NCBI RefSeq assembly: GCF_013122565.1
Contig: NZ_CP053258.1
Direction: 5' to 3' (one strand)
From: Escherichia coli
Lineage (GTDB): Bacteria > Pseudomonadota > Gammaproteobacteria > Enterobacterales > Enterobacteriaceae
DNA length: 64,000 nucleotides
Shown here: positions 10,563-47,551 of the stretch, in pieces
How positions within the stretch are numbered: position 1 is the first letter of the stretch
How the letters are laid out: every line of letters starts with the position of its first letter
Notes under the pieces: generated by a model
Seen by the model: the letters and a program-made list of their open reading frames with translations, nothing else
What the model was told of the DNA's origin: nothing
The model's database searches: none
Translations under genes and position numbers: made by a program

Positions 10563-10588
10563 AAGGCCTTCTCCAGGAGAAGGCCTTG
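10563..10588. terminator. Bidirectional terminator between convergent ppiC and ilvC
   Basis: Perfect inverted repeat aaggccttctcc-ag-ggagaaggcctt between the ppiC stop and the ilvC stop. Confidence 0.6.
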
Positions 10589-43997: not shown

Positions 43998-44270
43998 TCT
44001 ACTGTGGATAACTCTGTCAGGAAGCTTGGATCAACCGGTAGTTATCCAAAGAACAACCGTTGTTCAGTTTTTGAGTTGTGTATAACCCCTCATTCTGATC
44101 CCAGCTTATACGGTCCAGGATCACCGATCATTCACAGCTAATGATCCTTTCCAGGTTGTTGATCTTAAAAGCCGGATCCTTGTTATCCACAGGGCAGTGC
44201 GATCCTAATAAGAGATCACAATAGAACAGATCTCTAAATAAATAGATCTTCTTTTTAATACCCAGGATCC
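43998..44270. other. Chromosomal replication origin oriC
   Basis: DnaA boxes tgtggataa (44004-44012) and ttatccaca (44183-44191) plus further 9-mers; three AT-rich 13-mers ctaataagagatc / aatagaacagatc / aaataaatagatc (about 44205-44248); at least 11 GATC sites in about 280 bp; sits between mioC and mnmG (gidA). Confidence 0.95.
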
Positions 44271-44358: not shown

Positions 44359-46248
44359 ATGTTTTATCCGGATCCTTTTGACGTCATCATCATTGGCGGG
44401 GGTCATGCAGGCACCGAGGCCGCGATGGCCGCGGCGCGTATGGGTCAACAGACTCTGCTTTTGACACACAATATCGACACTCTGGGGCAGATGAGCTGCA
44501 ACCCGGCGATCGGCGGTATTGGGAAGGGACATCTGGTAAAAGAAGTGGATGCACTCGGCGGTCTGATGGCGAAAGCGATCGATCAGGCGGGTATCCAGTT
44601 TAGGATACTAAACGCAAGCAAGGGACCGGCAGTTCGCGCTACCCGAGCTCAGGCGGATCGTGTGCTCTACCGTCAGGCGGTACGTACGGCGCTGGAGAAC
44701 CAACCGAACCTGATGATCTTCCAGCAGGCGGTTGAAGATCTTATTGTCGAAAACGATCGCGTGGTCGGTGCTGTTACCCAAATGGGACTGAAGTTCCGTG
44801 CCAAAGCCGTCGTGCTCACCGTTGGGACGTTCCTCGACGGTAAAATTCATATCGGTCTGGATAACTACAGCGGTGGCCGTGCTGGTGATCCGCCGTCCAT
44901 TCCGCTTTCTCGCCGTTTGCGTGAACTGCCGCTGCGCGTTGGTCGTCTGAAAACCGGGACACCACCGCGTATTGATGCTCGAACCATCGACTTTAGCGTG
45001 CTGGCGCAACAGCATGGTGATAACCCAATGCCGGTATTCTCGTTTATGGGCAGTGCGTCCCAGCATCCCCAGCAGGTGCCGTGTTATATCACTCATACCA
45101 ACGAGAAAACCCATGATGTGATCCGCAGTAACCTCGATCGTAGCCCAATGTACGCAGGGGTGATCGAAGGTGTCGGCCCACGCTACTGCCCGTCGATCGA
45201 AGACAAAGTCATGCGCTTCGCCGACAGAAATCAGCATCAGATCTTCCTTGAACCGGAAGGGCTGACCTCTAACGAAATTTATCCGAATGGTATCTCCACC
45301 AGCCTGCCGTTCGATGTGCAGATGCAAATCGTCCGCTCTATGCAGGGGATGGAAAACGCGAAGATCGTGCGTCCGGGTTATGCCATTGAGTATGACTTCT
45401 TCGATCCTCGCGACCTGAAACCGACGCTGGAGAGCAAGTTTATCCAGGGGCTGTTCTTTGCTGGTCAAATTAACGGCACTACCGGTTACGAAGAAGCCGC
45501 TGCGCAAGGTTTGCTGGCTGGTCTTAACGCTGCCCGTCTGTCTGCAGACAAAGAAGGTTGGGCTCCGGCGCGTTCTCAGGCGTATCTCGGAGTACTAGTT
45601 GATGACCTGTGCACTTTAGGAACCAAAGAACCGTATCGTATGTTTACTTCGCGCGCAGAATATCGTCTGATGCTGCGCGAAGATAATGCGGATCTGCGTT
45701 TGACTGAAATTGGTCGTGAACTGGGCCTGGTGGATGACGAACGTTGGGCGCGCTTTAACGAGAAACTTGAGAATATCGAGCGTGAGCGTCAGCGTCTGAA
45801 ATCGACCTGGGTAACCCCGTCGGCGGAAGCTGCAGCCGAAGTGAATGCTCACCTGACTGCGCCGCTTTCCCGTGAAGCCAGTGGTGAAGATCTGCTGCGT
45901 CGTCCGGAAATGACTTATGAAAAATTAACCACGCTGACGCCGTTTGCCCCTGCGTTGACAGACGAACAGGCGGCGGAACAGGTTGAGATTCAGGTTAAAT
46001 ACGAAGGTTATATCGCGCGCCAGCAAGATGAGATCGAAAAGCAGCTGCGTAACGAGAACACCCTGCTACCCGCGACACTGGATTACCGCCAGGTATCCGG
46101 TCTTTCTAACGAAGTGATCGCCAAACTTAACGATCACAAACCGGCCTCTATCGGCCAGGCTTCACGTATTTCTGGCGTCACGCCTGCGGCCATCTCCATT
46201 CTGCTGGTGTGGCTGAAAAAACAGGGTATGCTGCGTCGTAGCGCATAA
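44359..46248 (+). CDS. mnmG: tRNA uridine-5-carboxymethylaminomethyl modification enzyme MnmG (GidA)
   Basis: 629-aa [65 protein letters not shown] (FAD-binding GxGxxG). Confidence 0.95.
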
Positions 46249-46311
46249 CGCATTAAAAATGCCTGGTAAGCACCCGCTTACCAGGCAACGCATCAAGAAC
46301 AGGTAATCACC

Positions 46312-46935
46312 GTGCTCAACAAACTCTCCTTACTGCTGAAAGACGCAGGTATTTCGCTTACCGATCACCAGAAAAACCAGCTTATTGCCTACGTGAATAT
46401 GCTGCATAAATGGAACAAAGCGTACAACCTGACTTCGGTCCGCGATCCTAATGAGATGCTGGTACGCCATATTCTCGATAGCATTGTGGTGGCACCGTAT
46501 CTGCAAGGTGAACGGTTTATCGATGTCGGCACCGGTCCTGGACTGCCTGGCATTCCACTCTCTATCGTGCGTCCTGAAGCCCATTTCACTCTGTTGGATA
46601 GCCTTGGTAAACGCGTGCGTTTCCTTCGTCAGGTGCAACATGAGCTTAAACTGGAGAATATTGAGCCAGTACAGAGCAGGGTAGAAGAGTTTCCTTCAGA
46701 GCCGCCATTTGATGGCGTAATTAGCCGCGCTTTTGCCTCTCTGAACGATATGGTGAGCTGGTGTCACCATCTTCCTGGTGAGCAAGGCCGTTTCTACGCG
46801 CTGAAAGGGCAAATGCCGGAAGATGAAATCGCTTTGTTGCCCGAAGAATATAAGGTCGAATCAGTGGTTAAACTTCAGGTTCCAGCCCTGGATGGCGAAC
46901 GTCATCTGGTGGTGATTAAAGCAAATAAAATTTAA
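46312..46935 (+). CDS. rsmG: 16S rRNA m7G527 methyltransferase RsmG (GidB)
   Basis: 207-aa ORF from GTG 46312 ([42 protein letters not shown]...). Confidence 0.9.
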
Positions 46936-47551
46936 TTTTTATCAAAAAAATCATAAAAAATTGACCGGTTAGACTGTTAACAACAACCAGGTTTTCTACT
47001 GATATAACTGGTTACATTTAACGCCACGTTCACTCTTTTGCATCAACAAGATAACGTGGCTTTTTTTGGTAAGCAGAAAATAAGTCATTAGTGAAAATAT
47101 CAGTCTGCTAAAAATCGGCGCTAAGAATCATCATTGGCTGTTAAAACATTATTAAAAATGTCAATGGGTGGTTTTTGTTGTGTAAATGTCATTTATTAAA
47201 ACAGTATCTGTTTTTAGACTGAAATATCATAAACTTGCAAAGGCATCATTTGCCAAGTAAATAAATATGCTGTGCGCGAACATGCTCAATATGTGATCTG
47301 AAGCACGCTTTATCACCAGTGTTTACGCGTTATTTACAGTTTTTCATGATCGAACAGGGTTAGCAGAAAAGTCGCAATTGTATGCACTGGAAAAATATTT
47401 AAACATTTATTCACCTTTTGGCTACTTATTGTTTGAAATCACGGGGGCGCACCGTATAATTTGACCGCTTTTTGATGCTTGACTCTAAGCCTTAAAGAAA
47501 GTTTTATACGACACGCGGCATACCTCGAAGGGAGCAGGAGTGAAAAACGTG

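Follow-up and report, generated by a model that had tools for sequence, protein, structure and literature searches.

A solitary REP-like palindrome between mnmG and rsmG of Escherichia coli has the anatomy of an intrinsic terminator on the antisense strand only

The described systems that come closest to the hairpin between mnmG and rsmG of E. coli are intrinsic terminators, the REP and BIME elements of Enterobacteriaceae, stop-proximal REP stem-loops, and the cis-antisense RNAs of E. coli. REPs and BIMEs are known targets at the DNA level, where they are bound by gyrase, Pol I or RAYT. REPs lying less than 16 nt from a stop codon have been reported to lower translation (Liang, Rudd and Deutscher 2015, as cited in PMC12306157), and most antisense RNAs of E. 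coli are reported to be ended by Rho (PMC7815308). An operon shared by rsmG and mnmG has been described in the literature, and the rsmG-atpI spacer is in use as an insertion site (Steinrueck and Guet). In a literature search we found no paper that discusses the hairpin, or rsmG together with an asRNA. Here, we describe the hairpin in a stretch of 64,000 nucleotides of the E. coli chromosome (contig NZ_CP053258.1 of assembly GCF_013122565.1, in the following the window). We regard it on balance as probable that it is a decayed REP-type element whose flanks make it a one-way terminator, transparent to sense transcription and an intrinsic stop for a weak antisense RNA.

The hairpin belongs to known kinds, the intrinsic terminator and the REP-like palindrome, in an unusual orientation, and the RNA 3' end at its foot is already contained in a published supplementary table. 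With intrinsic terminators it shares a G+C-rich 12-bp stem, a 4-nt loop, an immediate U-run and in vivo 3' ends within this U-run. In contrast to them, the U-run is found only antisense to both flanking genes, within a co-oriented operon, and the coding direction is read through. Since the U-run is antisense only and serves no annotated gene, the element fits neither the normal terminator of a gene end nor the bidirectional kind. Like a REP it is extragenic, REP-sized and placed where relatives have canonical GCCCGGTGGCGC..GCTTACCGGGCCTAC REPs, but it is single-copy in E. coli, has no GTAG/CTAC and is not paired with a second REP, and its stem is fully Watson-Crick whereas REPs carry G.T and a bulge. 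As with the stop-proximal REP stem-loops that lower translation or stabilize mRNA, the stem base follows the mnmG stop codon closely within a polycistronic transcript; it differs from those in that the Term-seq lists give no sense-strand 3' end for it. The RNA that runs against rsmG resembles other cis-antisense RNAs of E. coli in being a low-level RNA antisense to a whole gene with a dRNA-seq transcription start site (TSS), and differs from them in its discrete end at a hairpin and U-run.

The locus is adjacent to oriC (window 44017-44248), which lies about 2 kb from the hairpin. A piece of 361 bases around the hairpin was found in 5424 of 5426 complete E. coli genomes, where the annotated genes that flank it are mnmG and rsmG; the RefSeq annotation on both sides agrees with the gene names that a first-pass annotation of the window had assigned. 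From asnC through bglG every annotated gene (mioC, mnmG, rsmG, atpIBEFHAGDC, glmUS, pstSCAB and phoU) is on the + strand of the window, so that a terminator on the opposite strand serves none of them. Window positions x convert to MG1655 coordinates as 3969992 - x, the + strand of the window being the minus strand of MG1655. The coordinates of the features are collected in Table 1.

The mnmG-rsmG spacer is 63 nt long and wholly contains the 28-nt palindrome. The first-pass annotation had described an 11-bp perfect stem, gcctggtaagc-accc-gcttaccaggc. Its letters are present at 46261-46286 as given, and so is its spacing, G46261 being the 13th base past the mnmG stop with 25 nt between 46286 and the rsmG GTG; its length has to be corrected, because T46260 pairs with A46287 and the perfect stem is 12 bp. 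The loop reads ACCC on the + strand and GGGU on the minus strand. As RNA, the 28-mer folds with -21.6 kcal/mol on either strand, and in its 81-nt context z is -4.8 (+) and -4.2 (-), with 0 of 200 shuffles being as stable. The window has 4 distinct sites at which 11 bp or more form a perfect inverted repeat around a loop of 3-10 nt; a dinucleotide shuffle contains 0.15 such sites on average. The hairpin is thus well above chance expectation. A second copy was not found within the window at up to 3 mismatches, no Rfam covariance model matched the hairpin in a search of 45800-46800 at E up to 10, and in 5419 of the 5426 complete E. coli genomes it occurs in one place only.

Table 1. Positions of the hairpin and of the features around it in the window
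Feature	Position	Strand	Remarks
mnmG stop codon TAA	46246-46248	+	11 nt upstream of stem base
U-tract of minus-strand terminator	46252-46259	-	TTTTTAAT on minus strand, ATTAAAAA on + strand
Antisense RNA 3' ends	46254-46255	-	Term-seq, three conditions (PMC7815308); MG1655 3923738 / 3923737
Perfect palindrome, solitary, REP-like	46260-46287	strand-neutral	stem 46260-46271 / 46276-46287, loop 46272-46275
C-over-G stretch	46288-46400 (C-rich from 46260)	+	GC skew -0.2 to -0.3; ends near Rho region 46383
Antisense RNA body	46288-47057	-	TSS MG1655 3922935 = window 47057; assembled transcript = window 47493-46181
rsmG Shine-Dalgarno AGG	46302-46304	+	outside hairpin
rsmG start codon GTG	46312-46314	+	24 nt after end of 12-bp stem
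Likely rsmG terminator	47020-47070	+	11-bp stem AACGCCACGTT / AACGTGGCTTT, 47020-47063, then T7; from sequence only

The two strands differ in what follows the stem. On the + strand the tail is ACGCATCAAGAAC (ACGCAUCAAGAAC), which has no T-run and a TransTermHP-type tail score of -1.56 (threshold -2.5), and the terminator scan reports no + strand site. With no U-tract after it, the hairpin is ruled out as an intrinsic terminator in the sense direction. On the minus strand, the consensus scan finds a terminator-like site, the only one of the two strands to have one, with 12 pairs, 7 of them G-C, followed by TTTTTAAT; the U-tract is a consequence of the + strand reading ATTAAAAA directly 5' of the stem, which on the minus strand places TTTTTAAT directly after it. 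The minus-strand tail UUUUUAAU scores -4.78. Hairpin and UUUUUAAU together are the canonical anatomy of an intrinsic terminator. The absence of a T-run that the first-pass annotation had noted therefore holds for the + strand, and its verdict that a terminator is unlikely stands in the sense direction only; the minus-strand tail and the Term-seq 3' ends in the U-run contradict it in the other. Beyond the three Escherichia species, a strong tail on the minus strand was seen only in C. sedlakii and Yokenella, as a separate occurrence.

In vivo RNA ends are available from the curated Term-seq lists for MG1655 of Adams et al. 2021 (PMC7815308, Supplementary file 1). An end classed as antisense is listed at MG1655 3923738(+) in LB at OD 0.4 and at 3923737(+) in LB at OD 2.0 and in M63, with the flanking sequence ...TGCCTGGTAAGCGGGTGCTTACCAGGCATTTTTA/ATGCG. 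In the window, these ends fall inside the U-run, 5-6 nt beyond the last paired base. In the sorted lists of PMC7815308, no entry on either strand lies between MG1655 3922387 and 3923737/8, and the next entries past it are at 3926314 (LB OD 0.4) and 3927468 (LB OD 2.0 and M63). The antisense end is the sole discrete RNA 3' end recorded in these lists across mnmG-rsmG. The RNA to which it would belong is given independently in Table S2 of a preprint (bioRxiv 10.1101/2023.03.23.533988) as an antisense RNA at 3922499-3923811(+) that overlaps b3740 and b3741, has a dRNA-seq TSS at 3922935 and was seen under heat shock, in LB, in MOPS and under phosphate starvation. From the reported TSS to the Term-seq end it measures about 0.8 kb and spans all of rsmG.

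Several observations on this RNA count against a one-way terminator. The score of its 3' end is low, about 1,300 compared to about 90,000 for the neighboring atp ends (PMC7815308). A search of the minus strand with relaxed -35/-10 criteria gave no convincing or strong promoter for it, the TSS at 47057 being as reported in the preprint, and this TSS sits within the 3' arm of the candidate rsmG terminator stem. That candidate was missed by the consensus scan; its stem has one mismatch (91% complementary) and an unusually long loop of 22 nt. Antisense transcripts would pass it, since no minus-strand T-run follows its stem. The Term-seq lists of PMC7815308 contain no 3' end at this likely terminator. 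In the supplementary files of the SMRT-Cappable-seq study (Yan 2018) that we examined, the mnmG-rsmG locus has no entry. An antisense protein gene was also considered and rejected: a 103-aa ORF with an ATG start at 46330-46641(-), whose end is 43 nt short of the minus-strand terminator, is almost certainly spurious, since E. albertii has a stop within it and only 34 of the 80 relatives keep it open.

The favored explanation treats the two directions separately. RNA polymerase would pass from mnmG into rsmG, because the sense strand has no U-tract, and any attenuation in the sense direction would be Rho-dependent and would take place further downstream of the hairpin. On the antisense strand, the 12-bp stem and UUUUUAAU would end the low-abundance RNA whose start is in the rsmG-atpI spacer and which spans rsmG. 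An antisense RNA ended at the hairpin would not extend into mnmG and towards oriC. The position of the ends in the U-run suggests intrinsic termination rather than exonuclease trimming, although RNase II or PNPase, stalled a few nucleotides 3' of the stable stem, could leave the same antisense 3' end. Stopping the antisense RNA may be of selective value. An argument against strong selection on the antisense fold is an allele, A46283G, that is found in 702 E. coli genomes (13%; the reference sequence is found in 4179): the stem folds with -20.9 on the + strand, which is barely weakened, and with -16.9 kcal/mol on the minus strand. E. whittamii has two changes of the same kind, which keep U.G pairs in the sense RNA only. 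The narrow spread of the strong minus-strand tail and such common alleles, which weaken only the antisense fold, make selection on an antisense function look weak.

The descent of the hairpin from a REP is suggested by the corresponding spacers of other species. We compared the mnmG-rsmG spacers of 80 related species. At least one stable stem-loop is present in 78 of them, the two exceptions being Erwinia species with overlapping genes (L073 and L075, overlapping ATGA, no spacer). The content of the spacer turns over strongly across the 80 species: some have one REP or two, of differing type, others a plain terminator, and others nothing. In 28 of the 80, a GCCCGG...CCGGGC palindrome begins 6-15 nt past the mnmG stop, the hairpin of E. 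coli being at 12 nt, and in 11 of those 28 the REP mark CTAC directly follows. Many spacers also contain a second, inverted REP in a BIME-like arrangement. The consensus of the relatives' palindromes is a dispersed repeat with several copies, up to 16-18 or more, on large replicons of Enterobacter, Klebsiella, Salmonella and Citrobacter; in E. coli genomes the median is 3 places. The 3' half of the E. coli hairpin, CGCTTACCAGGC, agrees with this consensus at 11 of 12 positions, and at all 12 in the A46283G allele, while the 5' arm is altered relative to the consensus in a way that gives perfect pairing. Intermediate forms exist in L020, L008 and L022 and in the A46283G allele. A spacer of the comparison set that is labelled Citrobacter freundii (L081) is Atlantibacter-like.

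The hairpin was compared with the REPs by several searches, for which the pstA-pstB spacer of the window served as an internal positive control; it contains a canonical BIME (61447-61510) with a Y-type REP, GCCGGATGCGGCGTGAACGCCTGATCCGGCCTAC, and after it a Z2-like REP in inverted orientation. From the 26 non-Escherichia elements only, a covariance model was constructed; run unfiltered over both strands of the window, it ranks the hairpin first, with 17.8 bits and a rough E of about 0.05, and places the genuine pstA-pstB REPs second and ninth. The REP size range of about 20-40 nt for an extragenic palindrome includes the hairpin (28 nt), and its position is that of canonical REPs in the 28 relatives. 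Against REP descent, the hairpin was missed by nhmmer run with a profile built on the REPs of the relatives, BLAST against REPs gave only an 8-mer match, and GTAG/CTAC is absent from its ends, the flanks being AAAAA/T and A/ACGC. REPs are multicopy, and under the same search settings the hairpin is found in one place per genome compared to at least 40 for the Z2 REP consensus. Membership of the abundant E. coli REP families was rejected at the level of BLAST. The RefSeq feature table of MG1655 has no REP features in the 50 kb that we examined, so that a missing REP annotation at the hairpin is uninformative. Judged by position and stepwise similarity, the hairpin is most likely a decayed, solitary REP and not a current member of a REP family.

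The first-pass annotation had named conservation of the stem with compensatory changes as a way to check the hairpin, and such changes are found at pairs 4, 6 and 7 in relatives and in Escherichia. At pair 4, 26 relatives have C:G, E. coli and E. albertii have T:A, and E. whittamii and the 702 E. coli genomes have the intermediate T.G. At pair 6, G:C is shared by 27 of 29 compared sequences, E. coli among them, and A:T is found in E. albertii. Pair 7 is T:A in some sequences and C:G in others, with intermediates of the T.G type. Among the 26 non-Escherichia sequences, 95.3% of cells pair, compared to 30-54% when the partner is slid, and three pairs change on both sides; the observed values were reached by 3-15 of 500 shuffles. 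This covariation fits a constraint on the RNA and a constraint on the REP as a DNA palindrome alike, and cannot separate them. Within E. coli, the cases examined among 5419 genomes vary only by the wobble-preserving change and by a change in the loop (A46272C in O157:H7).

The alternative that survives best is that the sense mnmG-rsmG mRNA is the relevant molecule, as the first-pass annotation had proposed, and that the stem-loop acts like a stop-proximal REP. We hold this possible rather than probable, and it is compatible with the terminator. By analogy with known stem-loops, the stem would plausibly block 3'-to-5' exonucleases after Rho termination in early rsmG and so stabilize the mnmG segment, or it could impede ribosomes that finish mnmG or alter the expression of rsmG. 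The distance of 11 nt from TAA to the stem base lies within the range of less than 16 nt for which lowered translation has been reported (cited in PMC12306157), and the 28 relatives have their palindromes in the same place. The non-Watson-Crick cells on the + strand are G.T 46 times and A.C 4 times, so that in 26 of 28 relatives the better fold of the two is that of the sense RNA, and A46283G and the E. whittamii changes, which retain U.G pairs in the sense RNA only, point in the same direction. However, the G.T asymmetry does not represent many independent events, because it is mostly a property of the REP family consensus itself.

Data on the sense transcript bear on this alternative from both sides. 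Supplementary file 2 of Adams et al. (PMC7815308) lists a Rho termination region at MG1655 3923609(-) with a Rho score of 2.49, which corresponds to window 46383 and lies 71 nt into rsmG and about 95 nt downstream of the hairpin, after the C-rich stretch; it also lists a Rho region at 3925620, 13 nt into mnmG. Steinrueck and Guet inferred a non-intrinsic terminator after mnmG from Conway 2014, and they detected wild-type readthrough into the rsmG-atpI spacer. Cedecea (L071, L077) and Atlantibacter-like spacers (L078-L081) have canonical + strand terminators, hairpin and T-run, at the mnmG-rsmG junction. On the other side, mapped ends of the mnmG-rsmG mRNA at the hairpin, which the first-pass annotation had looked to as a further check, are missing from the Term-seq lists in all three conditions; this is weak evidence against a sense role, because the expected end at the rsmG terminator is missing too, and sense transcripts may be below the Term-seq threshold. 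The Erwinia species manage without a spacer, and in the RNA fold the hairpin involves neither the Shine-Dalgarno sequence nor the start codon of rsmG.

A neutral relic seems to us rather unlikely. In that case, a REP that landed in the spacer or was inherited there would have lost CTAC and would have no selected function on either strand, and the antisense 3' end would be incidental, the product of an A-rich spacer beside a strong stem. The single copy, the missing CTAC and the high turnover of the site across the 80 species are in line with this, as are the weakness of the antisense RNA, which has no clear promoter and whose ORF is not conserved, and the frequency of alleles that weaken the fold of one strand. 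What argues against it is that the stems of Escherichia stay perfect or wobble-paired through compensation (C:G to T:A at pair 4, G:C to A:T at pair 6), that 78 of the 80 relatives retain some stable stem-loop in the spacer, and that the variation examined in E. coli preserves wobble pairing or is limited to the loop.

A stronger version of the favored explanation, in which the hairpin is a selected one-way insulator that allows mnmG and rsmG to be co-transcribed and confines the antisense RNA to rsmG, appears very doubtful to us. If it were true, two co-transcribed genes would be regulated separately, and antisense transcription, which is directed head-on against the leftward replication fork and at the unwinding end of oriC, would be kept from mnmG and the origin. 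Least probable of all is that the palindrome acts on the DNA level, some 2 kb from oriC, by binding a protein (gyrase, Pol I or RAYT, for example) or by forming a cruciform: its perfect symmetry as DNA, its two Dcm sites and the nearby origin would suit such a role, but it is solitary and not part of a BIME pair, it lacks the GTAG/CTAC needed for RAYT, and the excess of G.T over A.C in the orthologues is a signature of RNA or single strands.

If the hairpin is indeed a one-way terminator, it shows a route by which a decayed REP turns into a stop within an operon for transcription of one strand only, and the rsmG antisense RNA would be a rare case in E. coli of a discrete intrinsic end where Rho is the usual route. 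For annotation, it follows that a hairpin without a U-tract needs to be read on both strands. The hairpin is located beside oriC and before the rsmG-atpI insertion site, and knowing the transcripts that cross the locus has some value for engineering. The current understanding of terminators or REPs is unchanged.

Two further features of the hairpin sequence may be mentioned. The stem contains two Dcm sites, CCTGG at 46262-46266 and CCAGG at 46281-46285, which arose by the compensated change from C:G to T:A relative to the CCCGG/CCGGG of the relatives; in the 702 E. coli genomes the 3' arm still reads CCGGG. A 7-nt direct repeat, AACGCAT, at 46247-46253 and 46287-46293 brackets the A-run and the hairpin and resembles a target-site duplication. 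E. albertii and E. whittamii share this repeat, and Citrobacter amalonaticus lacks it despite an orthologous palindrome there; it could be due to chance, to slippage or to an insertion.

The window contains other perfect palindromes. The ilvE-ilvD spacer, between genes on the minus strand, has a second perfect intra-operon hairpin (16543-16570) with a T-run, TTTTTTGTATTT, only on the antisense strand; despite this similar geometry, the Term-seq lists of Adams et al. give no 3' end near MG1655 39534xx. A perfect 11-bp palindrome lies between the convergent genes ppiC and ilvC (10563-10587). The sequence that follows it is gaactctgaatctc, compared to GAGTGTTTTCTCCC in MG1655 as quoted in Adams et al., which shows that the window strain is not MG1655. 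A perfect 12-bp palindrome, AAAACGCCACGT/ACGTGGCGTTTT, at 2371-2398 is located directly past the stop of a 443-aa minus-strand ORF and, from its sequence, looks like an ordinary gene-end terminator.
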